Positions 1 to 40,398 of a DNA stretch of 64,000 nucleotides are shown piece by piece (the stretch's first letter is position 1; each line of letters opens with the position of its first letter). This stretch comes from Candidatus Yanofskybacteria bacterium. GTDB taxonomy: Bacteria; Patescibacteriota; Minisyncoccia; 2-02-FULL-40-12; IGHO2-01-FULL-4-A. A program made the translations under genes and the position numbers. Location of the stretch: contig JACOZV010000004.1 in NCBI GenBank assembly GCA_016181175.1, forward strand, positions 7,718 through 71,717, given 5' to 3'. The notes beneath the pieces were generated by a model. The model searched no databases, was not told the DNA's origin, and saw only the letters and a list, made by a program, of their open reading frames with translations.

Positions 1-26
1 AATTAAAAAACTAGCTCTAGCAATCC

Positions 27-62
27 CCAACCAAAAACCCCGATAACGGGGTTTTTGGTTGG
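27..62. other. perfect 15-bp stem / 6-nt loop hairpin (ccaaccaaaaacccc-gataac-ggggtttttggttgg)
   Basis: Inverted repeat read directly. It lies 3' of tRNA-Trp on the minus strand. There is no clean U-tract after the stem, so a terminator role is uncertain. Confidence 0.4.
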
Positions 63-122
63 GTCCTTCCTTCGCGGTCTAGAAGCGGGTTTTACCCGCC
101 GTAGCCCGCTTAGGTGGGCGAA
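63..122 (-). ncRNA. unassigned GC-rich structured element immediately 3' of tRNA-Trp
   Basis: On the minus strand, CCTTCGC...GCGAAGG encloses the nested hairpin GCGGG-TAAAA-CCCGC. It is GC-rich in an AT-rich genome. I recognise no family. Confidence 0.25.
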
Positions 123-195
123 GGCGGGGGCGTCCCGACTCGAACGGGAATTGACGGTTTTGGAGACCGTAGTCCTGCCATTGAACGACGCCCCC
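123..195 (-). tRNA. trnW: tRNA-Trp (anticodon CCA)
   Basis: The reverse complement folds as a cloverleaf. Acceptor GGGGGCG/CGCCCCC; anticodon stem ACGGT/ACCGT; loop CTCCAAA; T-stem TCCCG/CGGGA; discriminator G followed by CC. Confidence 0.85.
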
Positions 196-198
196 AAA

Positions 199-224
199 AT
201 AGTGCTTAAGGCACTATTTTTTTG
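199..224. terminator. hairpin atagtgc-ttaag-gcactat followed by T6-7
   Basis: Stem-loop plus T-run read directly. It sits between tRNA-Thr and tRNA-Trp. Confidence 0.45.
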
Positions 225-390
225 TTTCTTTGTGCATCACGTGCTTTCTGCAAAACTTGCAGAATTTCTTCATTTCGATTGTCCGCGTAACCAGTTTCTT
301 ATTTTTCGTAGAAAAATAATTGACTTGCTTGCAGATGCTGCACTTTAATTTTATTAGGTTATCTTGGGACATATTGTTTATTATTAACTT

Positions 391-465
391 TGGAGCCAGC
401 GGTCGGAATCGGACCGACGCTCTTTCCCTTACCATGGGAGTGCTTTACCACTAAGCTACGCTGGC
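391..465 (-). tRNA. trnT: tRNA-Thr (anticodon GGT), CCA encoded
   Basis: The reverse complement gives GCCAGCG-TA-GCTTAGTGGTAAAGC-A-CTCCC-ATGGTAA-GGGAA-...GTCGG-TCCGATT-CCGAC-CGCTGGC-T-CCA, a full cloverleaf. Confidence 0.85.
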
Positions 466-506
466 ATAATACCATGGAGTTGCTCTTCCACTGAGCTACA
501 ACGGCC
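466..506 (-). pseudogene. diverged duplicate of a tRNA-Thr(GGT) 5' half (acceptor, D-arm, anticodon stem-loop) with no 3' half
   Basis: The reverse complement is GCCGTTG-TA-GCTCAGTGGAAGAGC-A-ACTCC-ATGGTA..., parallel to the intact tRNA-Thr directly downstream. There is no matching 3' acceptor strand. Confidence 0.5.
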
Positions 507-520
507 TCACACCTACTTAG
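503..520. repeat. left arm of perfect 18-bp inverted repeat GGCCTCACACCTACTTAG
   Basis: Exact reverse complement of 781..798. It contains the TAG stop of the GIY-YIG ORF. Confidence 0.9.
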
Positions 521-776
521 CTTCAACAACACAATTCTTAATTCGCCTTTTAAGTTGCAGGTATGCGTTTCCTCTCAATTTTATACTATATTCTCTATGC
601 TTGGCATCTCCTTGCGAATAATAACTTTCATAGTATATCAGCCACCAAGGAATATTCAACTTTGTGGCTTTAACCAAACCAAAATTGTGTTGTTGGAATC
701 TTAACGTAAGATCGTGGGTATAGCCAAAGTATAATTGGCCATCTTTTTTACTTTTCAAAACATAAAAATAATACAT
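513..776 (-). CDS. GIY-YIG nuclease family protein (small stand-alone YhbQ/UPF0213-like), 87 aa
   Basis: The motif MYYFYVLKSKKDGQLYFGYTHDLTLRFQQHN matches the GIY-(x10)-YxG...R...H/N signature. The ORF extends to a TTG at 800 only because it reads through the inverted-repeat arm. The internal ATG at 776 is the likely start. Confidence 0.75.
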   Translation of the reverse strand: MYYFYVLKSKKDGQLYFGYTHDLTLRFQQHNFGLVKATKLNIPWWLIYYESYYSQGDAKHREYSIKLRGNAYLQLKRRIKNCVVEAK

Positions 777-780
777 AAAG

Positions 781-798
781 CTAAGTAGGTGTGAGGCC
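781..798. repeat. right arm of perfect 18-bp inverted repeat
   Basis: Reverse complement of 503..520. Confidence 0.9.
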
Positions 799-838
799 AA
801 CGGCCTTTTTTATCAACATTTTTTAACTTTATTTTTAT

Positions 839-854
839 TCTGTGGGGGCGGTAG
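839..854. repeat. 16-bp direct repeat TCTGTGGGGGCGGTAG, a copy of the tRNA-Tyr 3' end (T-stem 3' strand, acceptor 3' strand and discriminator)
   Basis: Identical to 1039..1054, which is the genuine 3' end of tRNA-Tyr. Confidence 0.85.
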
Positions 855-1036
855 CGTTGAAAACCAACTGCTTGGTTTTCAACGGGAATTTTAGCTTTGC
901 CTTGTGCGAATAGCACGGCAAAGCGTTATAAAAATTCCCATGCACCGTATTCGCTAAAAGCGAACTTGATGCAAATCTGCTGCTTCGCAGCAAGTCCAGA
1001 AACATAATCGCCGTAGGTAGTTATGTTTCTGGACTC
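855..1036 (-). other. hairpin-rich 180-nt segment between the two tRNA-Tyr 3'-end copies
   Basis: At least five strong hairpins: 855-884 (12-bp perfect stem), 883-941 (nested 9+8+4 bp), tcgctaaaagcga, gctgcttcgcagc, and 1003-1036 (14-bp stem). No ORF. Confidence 0.4.
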
Positions 1037-1038
1037 TA

Positions 1039-1054
1039 TCTGTGGGGGCGGTAG
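1039..1054. repeat. 16-bp direct repeat (native tRNA-Tyr 3' end)
   Basis: See 839..854. Confidence 0.85.
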
Positions 1055-1126
1055 GATTTGCACCTACGTAGGCACAAGGCCAGCAGATTTACAGTCTGCC
1101 CTCGTTGACTGCTTGAGTACACCCCC
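1042..1126 (-). tRNA. trnY: tRNA-Tyr (anticodon GTA), long variable arm
   Basis: The reverse complement gives GGGGGTG...GCAGA-CTGTAAA-TCTGC, a 15-nt variable arm, GTAGG-TGCAAAT-CCTAC, CGCCCCC and discriminator A. Confidence 0.85.
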
Positions 1127-1142
1127 TATTTTGGCCAACCGA

Positions 1143-1217
1143 TGGAGCCGACCCCGAGATTCGAACTCGGAACCTACGCTTTACAAAAGCGTTGCTCTGC
1201 CGTTGAGCTAGATCGGC
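1143..1217 (-). tRNA. trnT: tRNA-Thr (anticodon TGT), CCA encoded
   Basis: The reverse complement gives GCCGATC-TA-GCTCAACGGCAGAGC-A-ACGCT-TTTGTAA-AGCGT-AGGTT-CCGAG-TTCGAAT-CTCGG-GGTCGGC-T-CCA. Confidence 0.85.
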
Positions 1218-1822
1218 AACTTTTCCAATTTTTTTAAGAGTCGTGTGAGTTTGTTCCGAGTTGTTTCGTCCTCCGGATCAAGTTCTGCGGCTTTTTTAAA
1301 AGACTCAACTGCATCGTGCCACTCCTCCATTTTCATATATATATTGCCTAATTTTTTATAAAGCCCAGCGTCCTTTGGATTTGTTGCTATTTCAAGAATC
1401 AACTTATGTTCTTGCTCTTCTAAATCTACTCCCCTGCCACTGTCGCTACTAATCCTGACTTCTTGTTCGGCCTGGGCGGCCGCTTCGCTACTTATCACGC
1501 TCTCGTGATGCATCACTGATTTGCGAACCCTATTGATTAACCGATTGGTGACCGCGTCAAGTTTTAGCGAAAATAGTCTTAATTTCCTCAAAAATTTTTC
1601 AAATTCAGCAAGAAAATTAAGACGATATTGCCTTAAATCTACTTTCTGAATATAGGCAGTGGGCACCGGAAAAAATTCAGCCCAAAAACCAGACTGTTCC
1701 GGCACAACACTCTCAACCACTTCGGGGGTAAGTTTTTTAAGATAAACGAACTTTCGGCTTATAATCCAGCCGATAGAGACTATAGAGAAAATAAAAATAC
1801 CAAATGGAATGAAAAAAAACAT
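1208..1822 (-). CDS. hypothetical membrane-anchored protein with C-terminal TPR-like helical repeat
   Basis: ORF 1208..1843. An N-terminal TM helix (FFFIPFGIFIFSIVSIGWII) is followed by a charged helical region. The likely start is the internal Met at 1822 because the annotated start overlaps tsf. The stop codon overlaps the tRNA-Thr 5' end by about 10 nt. Confidence 0.5.
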   Translation of the reverse strand: MFFFIPFGIFIFSIVSIGWIISRKFVYLKKLTPEVVESVVPEQSGFWAEFFPVPTAYIQKVDLRQYRLNFLAEFEKFLRKLRLFSLKLDAVTNRLINRVRKSVMHHESVISSEAAAQAEQEVRISSDSGRGVDLEEQEHKLILEIATNPKDAGLYKKLGNIYMKMEEWHDAVESFKKAAELDPEDETTRNKLTRLLKKLEKLPI

Positions 1823-2289: not shown

Positions 2290-2988
2290 TTAAGGATTAG
2301 TGACGCCCTTGCATATTGCTTCCAATATGAGTTCTACTGATTTCTTGGAATTGTCGTTGGCCCCGATAGGATAATCGATCAGTTTGGGGTCACTATCGGT
2401 ATTAACTATGCCAACGACTTTAACACCTGCTCTTTTGGCTTCATGAACTGGCAATTGGCTCTCCTTAAGCGAGGTAATAAAAATTATGTCGGGAATACGT
2501 GACAGTTTGCGGATACCGCCGAATTTCAACTTCAGGCCTGCGATTTCTTTTTCTTTTAACACCTTTTCTTTTTTAGTAAACTTGTCAAAACCGCCTTCGG
2601 CTTGTTTTTTTTCAAGTTCTTCCAAATATTTAATCCTACCGGTAATTGTTTTGAAATTTGTCAAAGTGCCCCCAAGCCAGCGGTTGATTACATACGGCAT
2701 ACCCAATGTCTCGGCTGTTGTTTTAATCGAGTCGGCAGATTGTTTGGTCAAACCAACAAATAAAATCATCTTGCTTTCTGCCATGGCTTTCTTTAAAAAA
2801 TCCACCGCCTTAACGAGCGAATCTGTTGTTTTGATCAAATCTAATATATAGATATTATCTTTCAGGGTATAGATGTACGGTTTCATGTTTGGGTGGAAAA
2901 TCGTCTTCTTGCGCCCAAAATGCATCCCCGCCCTTACCATATCCTCATAGGCCGGCAAAAAACTGATTGTATTGTTTACTTCAGGCAT
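2290..2988 (-). CDS. rpsB: 30S ribosomal protein S2
   Basis: MHFGRKKTIFHPNMKPYIY...ILFVGLTKQ...VVGIVNTDSDP are S2 hallmarks. I take the start at the internal Met (2988); the ORF is called to 3045. Confidence 0.9.
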   Translation of the reverse strand: MPEVNNTISFLPAYEDMVRAGMHFGRKKTIFHPNMKPYIYTLKDNIYILDLIKTTDSLVKAVDFLKKAMAESKMILFVGLTKQSADSIKTTAETLGMPYVINRWLGGTLTNFKTITGRIKYLEELEKKQAEGGFDKFTKKEKVLKEKEIAGLKLKFGGIRKLSRIPDIIFITSLKESQLPVHEAKRAGVKVVGIVNTDSDPKLIDYPIGANDNSKKSVELILEAICKGVTNP

Positions 2989-3079
2989 GCTGAAAATAAT
3001 AACAAAAAAATTGGGGATATGCAACACAGCACTCGCCACCCACAAAAATTACAAACTTAATTAGCAATAGGATTTATCT

Positions 3080-3170
3080 ACCGGCTCCGCGCGCGCGTTT
3101 TGCTGGCCGCTACGCGAACAGGCACAAAACCCACGCGCCTTCACCGGAAAACCCGTCGGACTAGCACTTT
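3080..3170 (-). other. GC-rich, possibly structured leader upstream of rpsB
   Basis: A roughly 90-nt stretch at more than 60% GC in an AT-rich intergenic region, with multiple short complementary segments. Its position matches a ribosomal-protein leader. No family recognised. Confidence 0.2.
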
Positions 3171-3192
3171 GTCTTAGAAATTTACGACCGAT

Positions 3193-3215
3193 AAAAACTG
3201 CCGATTGGTATCGGC
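3193..3215 (-). terminator. rho-independent terminator (gccgataccaatcggc + T-run)
   Basis: Hairpin plus a T-tract on the minus strand downstream of the giant surface-protein gene. Confidence 0.55.
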
Positions 3216-3235
3216 TTGGGGTTTGTAATCTTTGA

Positions 3236-3263
3236 TGAAAAACAAAAGCCGAGGTGTCTCGGC
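3236..3263 (-). terminator. rho-independent terminator (gccgagacacctcggc + ttttgttttt)
   Basis: Hairpin plus a U-tract about 25 nt after the stop of ORF 3289..6984. Confidence 0.65.
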
Positions 3264-3288
3264 AAAAATTGACAGTTGCCCCTATGAC

Positions 3289-6200
3289 TTATTTATAAAA
3301 ATTCCAGAAATTTCCAAAAATATCTAACGCTTTGTCTTTTAACCCCCCCCCCCCCGTAACTTGTATTTCCAAACTGGAATCGCTGAAATTACCGGCCAGA
3401 TCAAAAACTCTGGCAGTTATTTTATGCTTTCCCGACTCAAAAAACGGGACAAGCAACTCCAAAGCAACAGGAAAAAATATTCCATCATCAATCTTAAAAT
3501 AAACAACCGGCTGAACAATTTCCTCGAAACCCACACTGAATTTAAATCTCACAGTCTCGCCGATTTTCACCGACAAAGAACTCGCCTTTATTACTGGCGG
3601 TGCCGGCGGCGTTGAATCAATCATAATTTTGAATTGGGAAACCGGCCCGAGACGGCCATCGGTGTCTTCTGCCTGGAGACGAAAATAGTATATGCTGTCT
3701 TCATCAATGGAGATGTTAAGAAAATTGTCCGAAGTTGAAACGGCTTTGCCCGGTATAAAGTCCGGGGTTTGATTCAACGCATAGTGATAAACGCCGCCTT
3801 CAAGCAACGGCCAAGCCAGCTGAATATCTTTTTTATGATACCAGCGATTGCTGTTGGGATGGCTTGGTGAAAATATGGGTATTATTTCATTAATGCTCGC
3901 GTTGGTTAATCCTTGTCGGGTAATACTGTAAAAAGCGTCACTTGCCGCCCTAAGCACATCGGTCCCCAAGCCGTCATTGGCAAGAACTTGCGTCCCTTCG
4001 GCGAATTTAAGCGAAGCCCCGCCCACAGTTAACGGCTGCACTACAAGCTCGGCTACCGTACCGGACGGTTCGGAAAATCCGGGATTAGGAACGCCGCAAA
4101 CAATTGTTACCGTTCCCGCCGCATTATCAATATCTTTTTCCAAAAAAAGTCCGGGATCGCACAAGGAATTGGCCGTCAAAATATCAACTATTTCAAACAC
4201 GCTCGGGTCATATTTTATTACCGCGCTCACGACATTGATAATTTCTCCACCGGTAAGCACCTTTATGGCAATGTTTTTTTCAACAAATTGGTTAATGATA
4301 TCCGCTTCAGGTTCAAATTTAATCGTAGAATTATAGATAGAATACGGCGCTCTTTCTAATTTTATAGAAATGCGGTCCAGTTTGTTGTAACTGATAAAAT
4401 ACATCACGGAAAATAAAGTCAGGGTTATAATTAAAATAGTTGGAATCCGATGCCTATGATGGAAAACACTCAGGAAAAAAGATAAATATATGAAAATCGC
4501 AAGAAAAGCAAGCGCCATAAAACCGGCCAAAACAATGCTATAGAAATTGTGGCTGGTCGGAAAAAGAATAATCGTTCCGCCGGGGCTTCCCTCAATTCCC
4601 GGAAATACGATATTGCTGACAATGTAATATTCCTCGCTTATTTTAAGTTCTTTGGCAAATTTAGGAACTTGTTTGGCAATTAGGTCGGAACCAACCGAGA
4701 AAAAGCTATTCAGTATAAAAATAGTATCCTTATCCTTTAAGCTTGTGCTGATTAAACCCTCCTCTGGAGTATAAAAAATAACATGCGAACCATTCTTCAA
4801 ATACTTGTCCTGAAACCGTACGGCATAAGAATTGTTAAATAAGTTTCCCAGAACAATAGCGCCGATAACTTTGTCATCTTCTAAAATAAGGGAGTTGCTT
4901 ATTGCGGCCAGGGGATTTTTGACCCCACGGACGATTTCAGTAACCGTTTCACCTTTAGCCACCCGCCTTCCTTGGATAGTGGTTTGAAAAACATTATCTC
5001 CGCGTTGATCCGGCAAATGTGAACGAACAAGCACAAATCCGTCCTTGTCAGTTACGGCAATAAAACTAAGTTCCCTTTCTTTTGCTTCAGCTTGCACGAT
5101 GGAGAGAAGCTCCAGCGTATCGCCTGCCTTCAGGGCATCGTTAAGAACTCCTGAAGAGACAATCTCCTCTCTTTGGTCAGAAATGTATTTGAGTTCCTCG
5201 GAAAAAACAGTCTTTAGTTGAATAATTTGTTTATCAGTTGAATAAGAATACCACAAGCCCAAGAGCCAGTTAGAAAATAGCATAATGATTACAAACACCA
5301 GAATGCTTAGCAATATTTCAATCATCTCTTTTTTGTGTATCCAGTCGGTTTTGCTTTTTTTATTTAATTTCTTTTTTTTACGATATTTTTTAATTAAATA
5401 ACTCTTAACTTCATGCCCAGTAGCTAGAATCTCCTTTTTTGTCGCGACAAAAATGAGCGCAATAATCAAAATAGAGGAAACCAAAAGCCATTCATTTTTA
5501 ATAAAGTTAATGAAGCCGCCGAATATCTTTGTCAAAAAGTCAAAAATTAGTTCGGTAAAAGACCCGGATTTTACCCTAAATGATACTCGGTTAGAATCAA
5601 TAGAAATGGCACTCCTGTCATCAACCGCCTGCGCCGTCACCTCGTGGCGACCTCCTCGTTCCGGCTTAAACTCAACCTGCCAATATCCATTGGCATCGGC
5701 GTGCGTTTCCAGTATGTATTCCGGGTTGACCCTGATGGCAACCCGAACTTTTTGGTTGGGCTTGGCTTTTCCATTTATAGTAATGGTTTCGCCTATTTTA
5801 ACTTGCGGCTTTTCTATTTGATTTAAAATCACCGGCTCTATTGATTGAATCTCCATTTGATAGTCAGATTCTGAATAATTCCCTGCTTTATCAAAAGCTC
5901 TTATGATAATCTTGCGCACCCCTGGCAATTGCAAAGGCATTTTATATAATCCGGCCAACCCCGGTTCTATTTTTAACCAGTCACTCTCACCGATTTTCAT
6001 TTCATATCTATCAATACCAGATGTACCGTCTGAAGTATCAAAAGCGAGTCTGGGTTGCGGGTTGGTTAAGTCCGCCACATCCAATCTGGTTATTTTAAAA
6101 TCTGCGGGTTTTTGGGTATCAACGTTAAACTTAAACGAAGTTACGGGACCTAATCCCGCTGGTGTTTTCGCACGGGCGTTAAAATAAAATTCGCCCTCTC

Positions 6201-7003: not shown

Positions 7004-7903
7004 CTATCTGAATCTTTTGTTATTTTTTATTAATTTTTTTGCTCTTCGTATTAACCGTGTTAAAAATGAAAAAAATAAAATAACCAAAAAAGTCGGCGTG
7101 CCAATTGCCAAATATGCAAATCCGTGGGGGACGAATTTCTCAATTCTTGCAAGCCCTACTTTATCCACGGCTTTTATCTCTATTATACTAAACGGATACA
7201 AATGCCGCAAAACATAAGGACTGTCTGCTTCACGCCACTGACCAAACAAACCAAGAGTTTTTTCCTTAACTTCATAGTGGCTAATGCCACTTCCCTTGTC
7301 TTGGGCTGAAAAAACGGCAACTCTGGCGCCATCAAATAAATTCTCGTTTTTGGTTATGAGTATCTCAAACTTTTCGGGCGCATAAAAATCCACAATTCGT
7401 GTTTTGATTATCTCTTGGTCGCCAGCTTCAAGAATATTAACAGCCGCTATCCCCGTGGTAACCGGCGCCTCCTGGCCTCCATCTTGGTGCAAATAAACCT
7501 TAAAATCTTCGAAAAATATCCGAGCTTCTCCTGTTTTCTTGGCCAAAAATGATAAATCAATAATTTTATCTTCCTTATCAGTGGTTGGTCCCTCTCCTCC
7601 GGGTATAATACCTGAAAATTTAATTGTATCTTTTCCGATTAAGGCTGGCCTATCAACCCATAAATTTATCAGCGAATTGGCATCAGAAAAATCTTTATAT
7701 TCAAGCAGGTTTGGGTCAAATTTGATTTTACTTTCTATGGCATTTATAAATTCTTCCGGATTTATCAGAACCTTAACTGAAAAAATCTGACCGGCCTCAA
7801 TTTCGCCCGGGATAGAAAAATATAATTTGGCCGCCGAGGCAAAATTAGAGAATAGTAAGTAGAAAGTAGAAAGTAGTAAAAAAATTAAATATTTTTTAAA
7901 CAT
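7004..7903 (-). CDS. secreted/anchored protein with cohesin-like N-terminal domain and C-terminal TM anchor
   Basis: Signal peptide, then AAKLYFSIPGEIEAGQIFSVKVLINPEE...IKFDPNLLEY (same module as in 3289..6984), and a C-terminal hydrophobic segment followed by basic residues. Confidence 0.7.
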   Translation of the reverse strand: MFKKYLIFLLLSTFYLLFSNFASAAKLYFSIPGEIEAGQIFSVKVLINPEEFINAIESKIKFDPNLLEYKDFSDANSLINLWVDRPALIGKDTIKFSGIIPGGEGPTTDKEDKIIDLSFLAKKTGEARIFFEDFKVYLHQDGGQEAPVTTGIAAVNILEAGDQEIIKTRIVDFYAPEKFEILITKNENLFDGARVAVFSAQDKGSGISHYEVKEKTLGLFGQWREADSPYVLRHLYPFSIIEIKAVDKVGLARIEKFVPHGFAYLAIGTPTFLVILFFSFLTRLIRRAKKLIKNNKRFR

Positions 7904-7930: not shown

Positions 7931-9730
7931 CTATCCGGACCAATGGAATGCTAATATGCTAAAGTCGGCTAAGTTCAAAAGTCCGTCACAGTTCAAGTCA
8001 ACATTAGAACCTTCGGGAACTGTTCTTTTCCACCAGTAAGCCATAATAGAAAAGTCTATTAGATTAATTTTTCCGTCACTATTAATATCGGCGTCGCGGG
8101 AACATTCTTTTTGCGGAACCGCAACGCCGATTCCAAAAGTCACCAGCTGGGAAAAAATGGATTCATCACCGGTTTTTAAAACTTCGGTTTTGGTTTTAAC
8201 AGTATGAATACCCTTCTCCAGACCGATAGTAGAAAAAACCTGTGAATAATCTCCGTTCAACAACGATTTGGTAATATAATCTTTTGGTTCTGATACGACG
8301 CTCACTCTGACTTGGGAATCGGGCACGGAAGACCCGCTAACGGTCAATTGCTCTCCTAGGTTAACGGAGGTTTTATTTAAACTGATTGTCGGCGGCAAAA
8401 CAATATTGGACACTTTTGCGATAGAACCGCTTGTCAAAATTTCCCGCTTAGTAAAGGTTACCGAACGCCGGCCGGTTTTGTCTTGCGCCCAAAATCCAAA
8501 GTTATAACCACCCGCTGATAACCCCGATAAAATAAAGCTGAATTTGCCGCTACTGTCAGCCGTAGTCGCACCGGCATTAGATCCGTCTTTCAAAAAATTA
8601 ATAACTGCCGACGGGTAAGCAAAACCCCCAAACTCCACAGCCGCTGTTGCAAGTATAGACCCGCCGCCGCCACCTCCGCCTCCGCCACTCGAAGCCGGTG
8701 TGGGCGTCGGTGTAGCCGCCGTGGTTCCAAAAATGGCAAATGAACTAAAATTAGCAGTAGAAAAAGTAATTGTTTTATTGGTTGTATTAATTGTCGCTCC
8801 GCTAACCAGTTGCCATGAGGAGTCGCTGGATCCCCAACGATAAGGCGCAAGGGAGCTTTCTGTAATACCGCTTACATCCGAACTGGAATAACTAAGAGTA
8901 ATGGTAGCCGGAATAGAAATGGCGCTTATCTGGTCTCCGGTACTTGGATGAAAAATGTTAAAGTCGTATGTTTTGCCGACAAAGTTTTTTTGGGAAGGCG
9001 CCGGTTTGCTGGAAGCAAAATAACTATTTGGAAAAGAATTTGCGACGAGTTGAACCGTCTGTGTGTAGAAGTTCTGAGGAAAATCAAGAACAGCGGTCGT
9101 ACCGCCGCTGTTGGTTAAAGTAAGAGCATTTCTGGTGGCCACATTAAAAGTAGAGGCATTGGCCGCTTCTGCTATGCTACTTGAGACGGGAGTAACACTT
9201 TTTTCATTAGAGGTAGCGACAACATTGCCCACCCCGTCTTTTGTTTCAATTTTAAAAGTATAATCGGAGTTATTAGTTAAACTTGATTTTTGATAGAAAA
9301 TAACATTCCCTACGTTTTGGCACGAATAAGTTCCGCCTGAAGTTAATTTTGTGCAAACATTATATCCACCAACAGAAAAACCCTGGGATGCCGAAGCCGG
9401 TGTCCAAGAAAGAAAAGCTTCGGCATTCCCCTTTAAAGCAGTATGCAATATTGGAGCTGTTACTTTCGGAAAATACAAAAACCCACTTCTCAAACCAAAG
9501 TTAGTAATTGAAGAACTGCCGATGGCTAAGTCGCCGACCGTTGCTCTCAAAATAAAACTTGACGAGCTTGACGAAGCTGTACCGCCGAAAATCGAATGTT
9601 GTGAGTCCAAAATCCTAAAATTATCGGAAGATAAACTCGCGCCAATAGAAATTTCGGCCGAGACAAAATCAGGGATTAGAAATACCAAAAACAATATTAT
9701 TAACACCAATAAACCCTTGTAATGGCTCAC
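7931..9730 (-). CDS. secreted repeat protein with C-terminal dockerin-like module
   Basis: Signal peptide. A Ser/Gly-rich repeat region. The C-terminus DINSDGKINLIDFSIMAYWW...DLNCDGLLNLADFSILAFHW is a duplicated dockerin-type Ca-binding repeat. Confidence 0.7.
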   Translation of the reverse strand: MSHYKGLLVLIILFLVFLIPDFVSAEISIGASLSSDNFRILDSQHSIFGGTASSSSSSFILRATVGDLAIGSSSITNFGLRSGFLYFPKVTAPILHTALKGNAEAFLSWTPASASQGFSVGGYNVCTKLTSGGTYSCQNVGNVIFYQKSSLTNNSDYTFKIETKDGVGNVVATSNEKSVTPVSSSIAEAANASTFNVATRNALTLTNSGGTTAVLDFPQNFYTQTVQLVANSFPNSYFASSKPAPSQKNFVGKTYDFNIFHPSTGDQISAISIPATITLSYSSSDVSGITESSLAPYRWGSSDSSWQLVSGATINTTNKTITFSTANFSSFAIFGTTAATPTPTPASSGGGGGGGGGSILATAAVEFGGFAYPSAVINFLKDGSNAGATTADSSGKFSFILSGLSAGGYNFGFWAQDKTGRRSVTFTKREILTSGSIAKVSNIVLPPTISLNKTSVNLGEQLTVSGSSVPDSQVRVSVVSEPKDYITKSLLNGDYSQVFSTIGLEKGIHTVKTKTEVLKTGDESIFSQLVTFGIGVAVPQKECSRDADINSDGKINLIDFSIMAYWWKRTVPEGSNVDLNCDGLLNLADFSILAFHWSG

Positions 9731-19779: not shown

Positions 19780-21086
<1,307 letters not shown>

Positions 21087-21088
21087 GT

Positions 21089-32798: not shown

Positions 32799-32845
32799 GC
32801 CATAACAGGCGGTTTTTTTATTAAAAAAAACCGCCTGTTATGGGG
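32799..32845. terminator. bidirectional terminator, 13-bp stem ccataacaggcgg / ccgcctgttatgg with T7/A8 loop
   Basis: Read directly between convergent genes. Confidence 0.75.
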
Positions 32846-39435: not shown

Positions 39436-40398
39436 TTAATTCTCAAACAATATCGGTATTTCTATGGCATCATCATATTCAGGAAGACCCGAAGGATTGT
39501 CTTTTCTTAAAATAAGTGCTCCCCTTCTGCTGAAGTCACCGATATATTCCGGCTTTTTAAATTCAATCACTCCTTCAAACGGAACAAAGTCCTCGGTCAT
39601 CCAATCTTTTTTCGCCATTGCATACCCTTCGGAGATAATTCTTCCGTCCCAATCCGTCAGCACAATTGGAAAACTTGCTTCAAAAAACCAAATACCCCTA
39701 GCCTGGCCCTTCACGGTCAAGGGACTTGAAACAGTATCATTAGCTTTGACATTTTCAACCTTGATTAAGTCTTCCTTGGGACAAAGCGCAAACTCGCAAT
39801 TTGGTCCAGTCCTACCAACATACGATCCATCTGAACAAAGTTTAGCATCCTGCGTACAGAAAACAGTGTCGGGTGTTTTATTGGCTTGCCAAATGGAAAA
39901 ATTAAGATAGGCCGCAAAACTCACCCAGAGAATATATGGCACTAGCAAATATGCCGCGGAATGGAAAATTTTGTAAAACACAACGATTGTCCAGACAATC
40001 GCAAACCAGAGCGCTACGATATCAACAAATGCCCAACCGAGATTATTTATGGTGAGCCATGTCGAACCATGCAATCCGAAAAAAATAATTGACCAGATAG
40101 CATTCAAGAATAACTGGATAAAAAACACCGCGATGGCCATTTTCCACATCCACAACATTCTAACATTCTGCAGAATGTTAGAATGTTGTTTCCAAACAAG
40201 GAAAAGCGCGATACCCATTAGTGCGTAAAGTGTTGTCCACGCCGGCCCAAATACCCATGCCGGTGGGTTAAGTGCCGGCTTTGTGAGTGTCTCATACCAG
40301 GTTGGAATTGCCGAGATCGTAAACACGGAACCAAGAATACCAGCAAGTTCGGATACGCCGACTGCAATGAATAACTTAGTAAGATTATTTAAACGCAT
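39436..40398 (-). CDS. TspO/MBR (tryptophan-rich sensory protein) domain fused to a C-terminal Gmad2 Ig-like domain
   Basis: PTWYETLTKPALNPPAWVFGPAWTTLYALMG is TspO. The C-terminus GIWFFEASFPIVLTDWDGRII is Gmad2-like. I take the start at Met 40398. Confidence 0.6.
   Translation of the reverse strand: MRLNNLTKLFIAVGVSELAGILGSVFTISAIPTWYETLTKPALNPPAWVFGPAWTTLYALMGIALFLVWKQHSNILQNVRMLWMWKMAIAVFFIQLFLNAIWSIIFFGLHGSTWLTINNLGWAFVDIVALWFAIVWTIVVFYKIFHSAAYLLVPYILWVSFAAYLNFSIWQANKTPDTVFCTQDAKLCSDGSYVGRTGPNCEFALCPKEDLIKVENVKANDTVSSPLTVKGQARGIWFFEASFPIVLTDWDGRIISEGYAMAKKDWMTEDFVPFEGVIEFKKPEYIGDFSRRGALILRKDNPSGLPEYDDAIEIPILFEN
40152..40189. repeat. perfect 38-bp palindrome (19+19, centre ctgcag) inside the TspO gene
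   Basis: acaacattctaacattctg | cagaatgttagaatgttgt. Confidence 0.9.

Follow-up and report, generated by a model that had tools for sequence, protein, structure and literature searches.

RtT RNA has been known since 1991, and has so far been treated as a curiosity of enterobacteria and Pasteurellaceae. It has been described as liberated from tRNA operon transcripts and linked to amino-acid starvation, and members of its Rfam family adjoin other tRNA genes in Pasteurellaceae (PMC4986893; PMC3318445); its mode of action has been called unknown (bioRxiv 10.1101/2024.07.17.603846). The tyrT-tyrV locus of Escherichia coli contains four RtT units (RF00391, 133-138 bits), and at the end of each stand the 3'-terminal 19 nt of tRNA-Tyr, AATCCTTCCCCCACCACCA. 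The structure curated by Rfam is closed by the helix GgGaaGGAU/AUCCuuCcC, i.e., an internal antisense ("anti") segment pairs with the terminal copy of the tRNA end. The number of RtT places per E. coli genome ranges from 1 to 14 with a median of 3 (4,741 genomes), and 18 places are on plasmids. Here we describe a segment of similar layout in a 64,000-nt stretch of DNA from a Candidatus Yanofskybacteria bacterium (contig JACOZV010000004.1, positions 7,718 to 71,717; the whole stretch is hereafter called the window), where a tRNA-Tyr gene is followed by a short, strongly folded segment and a second copy of the gene's 3' end.

Other described systems resemble this layout in part. The 3'ETS-leuZ sponge of E. 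coli is a functional small RNA kept from the processing of a tRNA operon; unlike the modules described here, RNAs of this type are short, weakly structured spacers without a tRNA-end copy and with no modular spread between tRNA genes. The integron attC site and the hairpin of the CTX-phage attP are folded single-strand recombination sites. Duplicated attachment (att) sites are found at integrative elements that target tRNA genes, including cis-mobilizable ones that are poor in open reading frames (ORFs) (reviewed in PMC5704250).

Comparison with related genomes indicates that the 184-nt segment in the window, together with the 16-nt repeat that terminates it, is one intact copy of a conserved module without an ORF, and that in Candidatus Yanofskybacteria, as in related Patescibacteria, this module occupies the 3' trailers of tRNA genes. 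The modules constitute two new families of RtT-kind tRNA-trailer element; none was found described for this phylum in the literature searched.

The repeated tRNA end and its recurrence in relatives

The tRNA-Tyr(GTA) gene of the window is located on the minus strand at 1126-1042 according to ARAGORN, and at 1126-1043 according to the Rfam tRNA model (50.9 bits); it encodes no CCA. The 16-mer CTACCGCCCCCACAGA is found at its 3' end (repeat copy 1, 1054-1039, minus strand) and again, without any difference, at 854-839 (repeat copy 2, minus strand), which forms the 3' boundary of the module. The two copies start 200 nt apart and are separated by a spacer of 184 nt (1038-855, minus strand), one nucleotide shorter than stated in the preliminary description. 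The duplication reported there is exact: the 16-mer has these two occurrences in the 64 kb and none further when two mismatches are allowed, and 100 shuffles gave 0 matches. Repeat copy 1 starts with CTAC, the final 4 nt of the 3' strand of the T-stem, and continues with the acceptor 3' strand, the discriminator A, and CAGA, which runs into the trailer; the last 3 nt of CAGA lie outside the tRNA-Tyr end called by ARAGORN. The module begins 1-3 nt past the tRNA gene.

The elongation factor EF-Ts encoded in the window is 88% and 83% identical to the proteins from Candidatus Yanofskybacteria genome bins, which belong to the Patescibacteria or candidate phyla radiation (CPR). Relatives share the gene order Thr(TGT)-Tyr-Thr(GGT)-(rpmG)-Trp, but the gaps between the tRNA genes vary widely. 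Among 32 loci in which tRNA-Tyr and the next tRNA are on the same strand, the gap is 3-19 nt in 10 and exceeds 120 nt in 18. In a scan for tRNA-end duplications, the 3' end of tRNA-Tyr reappeared 135-225 nt further downstream in L005, L007, L013, L015, L018, and L041 (related loci are designated by numbers with the prefix L). A pattern scan of metagenomes added 11 loci linked to tRNA-Tyr, and L148, whose tRNA was missed by ARAGORN; the remaining hits, about 70, were noise, mostly from high-GC or simple-repeat sequence. The layout that recurs at about 25 related loci is a tRNA gene, a structured module of 130-225 nt without an ORF, and a copy of the 3' end of that tRNA. All 25 homologous copies with upstream sequence are on the same strand as the tRNA and directly 3' of it; the exception is L230, whose array runs off the end of the available sequence. 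The modules occur behind tRNA-Tyr, tRNA-Trp, and tRNA-Thr.

Scans of IMG/VR covered 80 stretches, the first of the more than 120 that matched, and seven more from a stricter pattern, with filtering by covariance models. Among the loci listed only L230 is real, and its neighbors are ordinary chromosomal genes; a phage or plasmid origin was rejected on these grounds.

The earlier description offered two interpretations of the segment, the first being the decayed remnant of an integrative element. On this account a larger element, prophage or island, would have entered an att site in tRNA-Tyr. Direct repetition of the 3' end of a tRNA is indeed the classic att footprint, and the tRNA cluster is an insertion hotspot in which a GIY-YIG ORF and a partial tRNA copy adjoin the segment. 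However, the unit is about 130-225 nt long at every locus and contains neither a conserved ORF nor a piece of an integrase; tRNA-Trp and tRNA-Thr have modules of this design as well; and five helices are kept with compensatory changes in four other genomes (see below). The segment is intact and belongs to a conserved family whose members keep their size and their orientation and have no integrase remnant, and we consider decay from a larger element very improbable. Elements at tRNA att sites and the modules do share the bracketing of an insert by direct repeats of the 3' part of an intact tRNA gene, tandem accretion at one site, and presence or absence that varies among relatives. They differ in that the modules have only 184 nt between the repeats (in the window), no integrase or other gene, and an interior made up of a conserved folded structure with an extra inverted tRNA copy.

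Structure of the modules

The tRNA-sense strand of the spacer has a predicted folding energy of -89 kcal/mol as RNA, compared to -48.8 +/- 4.0 kcal/mol for shuffled sequences (z = -10.0); the opposite strand also folds well (z = -8.4). Five or six hairpins are predicted, in line with the earlier count of at least five strong stem-loops: one with a 15-bp stem, one with 6 bp, a composite one in which a helix encloses a hairpin, a two-tier one, and one with 12-13 bp. The covariance model R2 defines a family, the window-type, that comprises the window, L115, L020, L006, and L012, with scores from 181 to 56 bits (L020 129, L006 121, and L012 56 bits). In these five copies 96.9% of the cells are paired, compared to about 40% with slid partners, and both sides have changed in 21 of the 47 pairs. 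Covariation had been named beforehand as a check on the proposed structure, and the compensatory changes in these 21 pairs leave the structure claim standing.

Hairpin 1 (993..1035, minus strand; seen as inverted repeat I3 and in the fold) has a perfect 15-bp stem and a 13-nt loop. In relatives it always directly follows the tRNA, its sequence and length vary, and compensatory changes are seen relative to L115, L006, and L020. The next element, hairpin 1b (978..992, minus strand; fold, R2 alignment, helix 1 of the covariation test), has the sequence UGCUGC-GAA-GCAGCA, which is almost invariant in four of the five window-type members. Helix P2 (UGCAUC/GGUGCA) encloses hairpin 2 (GUUCGCU-UUU-AGCGAAU) in the predicted fold (941..973, minus strand); both sides have changed in 8 of the 13 pairs of this region (helix 2). 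It is followed by the two-tier hairpin 3 (885..939, minus strand; fold, helices 3 and 4, and alignments), with a nearly invariant outer stem, GGGAAUUUU/AAAAUUCCC, and a variable inner stem with compensated changes. Hairpin 5 (855..884, minus strand; inverted repeat I5) has a stem of 12-13 bp and abuts repeat copy 2; both sides have changed in 7 of its 12 pairs (helix 5), with 100% of the cells paired, and the apex AAG-CAG-UU is kept in four of the five members (AAGUAGUU in L115). The loops and junctions of the window-type are nearly invariant, e.g., GAUUUGCA, GGGAAUUUU...AAAAUUCC, and AAGCAGUU. L115 is a close relative of the window module and shows compensatory changes in hairpins 1 and 5.

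Most of the other loci belong to a second family, the main-type. Its first consensus, from eight spacers, had 37 pairs, 22 of them with compensatory changes, and the covariance model R1 led to 20 copies. In these, 90.8% of the cells are paired, compared to about 35% with slid partners; both sides have changed in 32 of the 37 pairs, and none of 500 shuffles reached the observed values, although these figures lean towards structure because the alignment was fitted by the model. G-U pairs are frequent on the tRNA-sense strand; at one P3 position GU was present in 13 of 18 scored cells. From 5' to 3', the main-type begins with a hairpin. Next is an anti segment, e.g., UAGGAUUUGCA, which is the reverse complement of the tRNA T-loop and the 3' strand of the T-stem. 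A helix of three pairs, whose GGA/GA internal loop is conserved, then carries hairpin 2, and a longer helix that includes G-U pairs, GGUCGCGAC/GUUGUGACC, carries hairpin 3. The tRNA-end copy comes last and pairs back to the anti segment. This closing helix between anti segment and copy has seven pairs, with 89.6% of the cells paired. R1 gives the window spacer only 17 bits, and this match covers the last hairpin and the tRNA copy alone. Homology between window-type and main-type was therefore rejected, and we keep them as two families with a shared layout.

These substitution patterns bear on the possibility that the modules arose neutrally, from selfish palindromes and from recombination, slipped or unequal, at the end of the tRNA, and are duplication scars with no function as RNA. 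In favor of it, the 178-bp tyrT repeats of E. coli range from 1 to 14 copies, and long perfect palindromes are common in the intergenic regions of this genome. On the other hand, 47 and 37 base pairs have been kept through double substitutions in genomes whose EF-Ts is only 52-83% identical, and invariant loop and junction sequences are not expected in neutral DNA. We give this explanation hardly any credence.

Equally doubtful is a stack of terminators, or of hairpins that protect the 3' end of the tRNA operon transcript, insulating the operon from the downstream GIY-YIG gene. Five strong hairpins located directly 3' of a tRNA pair invite this interpretation, as do the other intergenic hairpins of the window, which are terminator-like. 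Yet none of the five hairpins has a U-tract behind it, and a scan for hairpin-plus-U terminators in 839-1054 was empty on both strands. In L005, L116, and L127 the module is located between two tRNAs of the same cluster, and termination requires neither conserved loops nor a copy of the tRNA end. A promoter scan found no sigma-70-like promoter inside 839-1054.

The segment had been described as having no ORF. Mechanical ORFs of 36-56 aa do overlap it, but none is conserved: in the five homologous copies the longest open frame is found on different strands and in different registers. Coding of a peptide by the module was rejected for this reason. A search of the window (E <= 10) and of six relatives against the known RNA families of Rfam returned tRNAs only. 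Resemblance to tmRNA, signal recognition particle RNA, Y-RNA-like RNAs, k-turn guide RNA, TnpB/IscB guide RNA, and IS110 bridge RNA was limited to motifs; these candidates were dropped for lack of a model match, a linked protein, or a fitting geometry. Group I introns are known from tRNA genes of Patescibacteria (PMC13011429), but one in the window tRNA-Tyr was rejected, as there is no match to an intron family and the tRNA is complete without splicing.

Match between module and local tRNA

Each module contains a terminal copy, and most also an internal antisense segment, that match the local tRNA. The terminal copy tracks this tRNA in its details: CCTGCC variants are found in L013, L015, and L148, CCTACCCGCCGCAC in L041, and CTCCCGGCCCACA in L012. 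R1 also identified main-type copies behind tRNA-Trp (L116 1194-1324 and L025 4790-4922) and behind tRNA-Thr(GGT) (L006 8732-8878). The L116 copy ends in CGATTCCTAGTGCCCCCGCTAAAC, a 24-nt stretch identical to the end of tRNA-Trp together with six trailer bases, and its anti segment CTAGGGATCGAACC can pair along the T-arm of tRNA-Trp, one of the pairs being G-U. The L006 copy behind tRNA-Thr(GGT) ends in CCCGACCAACGGCTCA, matching the tRNA-Thr end at 15 of 16 positions, and has the anti segment GGGTCGGATTGAAC.

The anti segment follows the tRNA in the same way, a tRNA loop TGCAAAT being accompanied by the anti segment ATTTGCA. In the window-type module of L012 the anti position reads ATTCGAA, matching the TTCGAAT T-loop of the resident tRNA; the equivalent in L020 matches GGTGCAAATC. 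In the window, the anti segment CAGCAGAUUUGCA (970..982, minus strand; inverted repeat I6) overlaps hairpin 1b. Twelve of its 13 nt are complementary to the anticodon arm of tRNA-Tyr (1081-1093), and 8 nt, GAUUUGCA, are complementary to the T-loop TGCAAATC. Downstream of 12 of 157 tRNAs there is an exact inverted match to the tRNA, 10 nt or longer, compared to 2 of 157 upstream. Ten of the 12 downstream matches are to the T-loop and T-stem; those in the window and L115 are to the anticodon arm instead. The repeat is 13-24 nt long and includes 0-7 trailer bases, and in many copies its left edge lies inside the T-loop.

Comparison with RtT

Of the known systems, RtT (RF00391; rttR; the tyrT-tyrV 178-bp repeats) comes closest to the modules, which agree with it in their position directly 3' of tRNA-Tyr on the same strand; in a multi-hairpin unit of about 130-180 nt without a convincing ORF; in the copy of the tRNA 3' end that terminates the unit (19 nt in E. 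coli, 16 of 16 in the window); in internal antisense to the T-arm/acceptor region of the tRNA (in RtT, GGGGAAGGAU..UUCGACC against GGTTCGAATCCTTCCCC); and in tandem units of varying number. They differ in that RtT has a long closing helix between anti segment and copy, which is not predicted for the window-type; that the repeat in the window is without CCA, because the host tRNA gene encodes none; that the window contains a single copy; and that the host is a Patescibacterium as opposed to a gammaproteobacterium. RF00391 (gathering score 45 bits) gave no match, even at E <= 10, to window 1-1400, L018 7225-7530, or L116 1150-2000, and R1 scored E. coli at only 6-10 bits, which is not significant. 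Homology to E. coli RtT by covariance model was rejected, being significant in neither direction; given the shared architecture and these two results, we classify the module as working like RtT and not as a member of RF00391. The syntenic thrU-tyrU-glyT-thrT spacer of E. coli contains neither an RtT match nor a repeat.

CPR genomes are ultra-small and otherwise shed non-essential DNA. The RtT design is nevertheless present there in two unrelated-looking families, whose tRNA-matching ends have been adapted to one of three tRNAs (Tyr, Trp, or Thr). Attaching an RNA or a mobile module to a tRNA gene in this manner may be a general and possibly ancient principle. What RtT-type elements do can now be approached by comparison, with two covariance models, some 25 loci, and clear rules on how the anti and copy segments are built. 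For genome annotation, the lesson is that short duplications of a tRNA end are not necessarily scars of islands.

Exchange, stacking, and possible mobility

The closest comparison for the window is L005, whose tRNA-Tyr is identical to that of the window at 85 of 85 positions. Up to repeat copy 1 and the TAGAG that follows it, the flanks of the two loci share 93-100% identity, as they do once more from repeat copy 2 onward (GAATAAAAAT...), whereas the sequences between the repeats cannot be aligned: the window has a window-type module and L005 a main-type module. L020 has both types of module in tandem behind a single tRNA-Tyr, the first of the terminal copies being degenerate; L230 has at least three tandem units; and L034 has a shortened main-type copy that lacks the terminal repeat. 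These swapped, tandem, and shortened states show that the repeats behave as module boundaries. The repeat had been put forward as a meaningful boundary, and modules are indeed exchanged, lost, and stacked precisely between repeats, with the repeat at other loci matching the local tRNA. Relatives with the same spacer but no direct repeat had been named as evidence to the contrary; in a minority (L020, L006, and L034) the module is present but its repeat is degenerate or missing. The exchange of modules can be explained by insertion, and equally by differential deletion through the repeats from an ancestral tandem.

A non-autonomous mobile element without an ORF, inserting site-specifically at tRNA 3' ends and possibly doing so as a folded single strand, would give rise to such patterns. 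In this scenario the antisense segment and terminal copy pair to form a duplex that mimics the T-stem/acceptor region of the tRNA, and a recombinase acting in trans carries out an exchange between this duplex and the tRNA gene, by which the tRNA end is restored and a repeat stays behind. The scenario accommodates one conserved core behind three tRNA species with direct and inverted segments matched locally, the 0-7 trailer bases in the repeat and its left edge within the T-loop, the tandems in L020 and L230, the cassette-like replacement between near-identical flanks, the patchy presence and absence, and a strand-specific structure with bulges and G-T/G-U pairs. As in integron attC and the CTX-phage attP, direct and inverted target-like copies about 100 nt apart can pair on one strand, and units without an ORF form arrays at one attachment point.

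However, no recombinase is linked to any of the copies, and no free or circular form was seen. Among the IMG/VR loci listed no real copy is in a clearly viral context, and neither BLAST nor the two covariance models found another copy of the module in the 64-kb window. Patchiness and "replacement" could also have arisen by differential deletion from a tandem like that of L020. The loops and junctions are more conserved in sequence than is usual for attC-type sites, as is, to a much larger extent, the internal core; the target is a tRNA 3' end and not attI or dif, with no link to an integron integrase or Xer shown; and in the window-type module the anti segment and terminal copy are not predicted to form a duplex. 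We regard a mobile element of this kind as unlikely, if less so than decay, neutrality, or termination; it is the main rival of the reading that we prefer (see below). An origin as a miniature inverted-repeat transposable element or other derivative of an insertion sequence was rejected: terminal inverted repeats are lacking in the window copy, the direct repeat varies between 13 and 24 nt, and there is a single copy in 64 kb.

A proposed stable RNA from tRNA trailers

The second interpretation in the preliminary description, a small structured non-coding RNA co-transcribed with the tRNAs, fits well with the compensated hairpins in relatives and with the absence from the segment of promoter-like and terminator-like sites. 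Our preferred reading, which on balance seems somewhat probable, extends this interpretation: the module would be transcribed with the tRNAs and cut at two tRNA-end signals into a stable RNA, and the repeat would, in addition, drive unequal recombination. The module would first be transcribed within the precursor of the tRNA operon. Because the same tRNA-3'-end signal brackets the module on both sides, the enzymes that trim tRNAs could release it as a discrete and very stable RNA of about 190 nt, much as has been described for E. coli RtT RNA and the tyrT transcript. At the DNA level, the repeated tRNA end would provide a short homology handle for unequal or illegitimate recombination, which would explain the gain, loss, exchange, and tandem copies of modules.

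Several observations weigh against release as a trailer RNA. The terminal tRNA copy of the window module is essentially unpaired in the predicted fold. A closing helix in the style of RtT can form only four of the five GAUAG/CUACC pairs in the window, compared to five of five in L115 and L006; judging from these predictions, the helix is absent from the window-type or limited to about 4-5 bp, and the window-type shows a tRNA-like signal for processing less clearly than RtT or the main-type does. In many relatives, several main-type copies among them, an AT-rich perfect palindrome with A-runs and T-runs at its flanks, resembling a bidirectional terminator, separates the module core from the end of tRNA-Tyr (L018 7316-7359, L097 479-520, L153 826-867, and L020 7338-7375). 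If transcription stops at such a palindrome, the module would depend on read-through or on a promoter of its own. RF00391, as described above, is silent on these elements. Finally, a plain processing signal fails to explain the trailer bases in the repeat and the antisense bases to the T-loop that have no partner in the module. These bases point to copying or targeting at the level of DNA, and the mobile-element scenario explains them better, together with the re-targeting to three tRNAs.

A bolder proposal would unite RtT and the two Patescibacterial families as one widespread and unrecognized class of mobile modules without genes, which place themselves at tRNA 3' ends by means of two guide segments, one identical and one antisense to the tRNA, as folded single strand or RNA, and which have been re-targeted among Tyr, Trp, and Thr. 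We consider this proposal improbable, more so than mobility of the modules as such.

Other features of the window and of related loci

Upstream of tRNA-Tyr, the cluster in the window begins with tRNA-Thr(TGT) (1217-1143, minus strand). Downstream of the module, again in minus-strand order, repeat copy 2 is followed by an AT-rich stretch and by an ORF of 95 aa with a GIY-YIG domain (503-800 region, minus strand; Pfam PF01541, E = 3.6e-11), which starts from a TTG at 800 and has an internal ATG at about 772. A perfect 21-nt inverted repeat (798-778 / 523-503) encloses this ORF, and GGCCGTTG is found at both of its outer edges (503-800). The ORF looks like a free-standing homing-endonuclease cassette inserted between tRNAs. 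It is followed by the 5' half of a tRNA-Thr(GGT)-like gene (509-470, minus strand), which ends in the anticodon loop (CCATGGTA) and abuts the complete tRNA-Thr(GGT) gene (465-391, minus strand); rpmG (minus strand) is located between the latter and tRNA-Trp (195-123, minus strand). The 5' half is 73% identical to its complete neighbor and closer to the resident tRNA-Thr(GGT) of L005 (ggccg...), which raises the possibility that the complete gene is a replacement copy; it may have been brought in with the GIY-YIG cassette.

L012 has a small GIY-YIG ORF (MDKKWYIYVLKSKKDSKYFIGST..., at about 7318-7560) directly upstream of tRNA-Tyr, preceded by a degenerate partial copy of the 5' part of tRNA-Tyr (GGGTCGGTGGCGG...GTGGCCAATCGCA). 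The association of a GIY-YIG ORF with a partial tRNA duplicate is thus common to L012 and the window. In L006, the tRNA-Tyr and tRNA-Thr(GGT) genes (7959-8250 and 8478-8729) each have their anticodon loop interrupted by an insertion, about 180-230 nt long, and both were missed by ARAGORN because of these insertions, which are probably group I introns like those known from Patescibacteria (PMC13011429).

The L230 sequence (IMGVR_UViG_3300033463_005745) contains its at least three main-type units at 2832-3319, with pseudo-T-arm fragments (GCAGGGCAAATCCCTCC...) between them. The contig is labeled viral; its visible neighbors are cysE-, galE-, cytidine-deaminase-, and GDSL-esterase-like. The available part contains no tRNA, and the array runs off the end of the sequence.

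The intergenic regions of the window contain many perfect hairpins of 17-20 bp with 4-nt loops, e.g., at 26-63, 21049-21088, 32800-32843, and 40152-40189. These are probably the terminators of this organism, and their number means that long perfect stems alone are not unusual in this genome. In L025 (about 5640-5455, minus strand) and L016 (8080-8280), the spacer between tRNA-Tyr and tRNA-Thr contains a conserved ORF of about 46 aa (e.g., MIKKKGSYWYVLSKTTGRSFGHYRTKKEALERLRQVEFFKYGKKRK) and no structured module, which suggests that the gap between these tRNAs is a general insertion hotspot.

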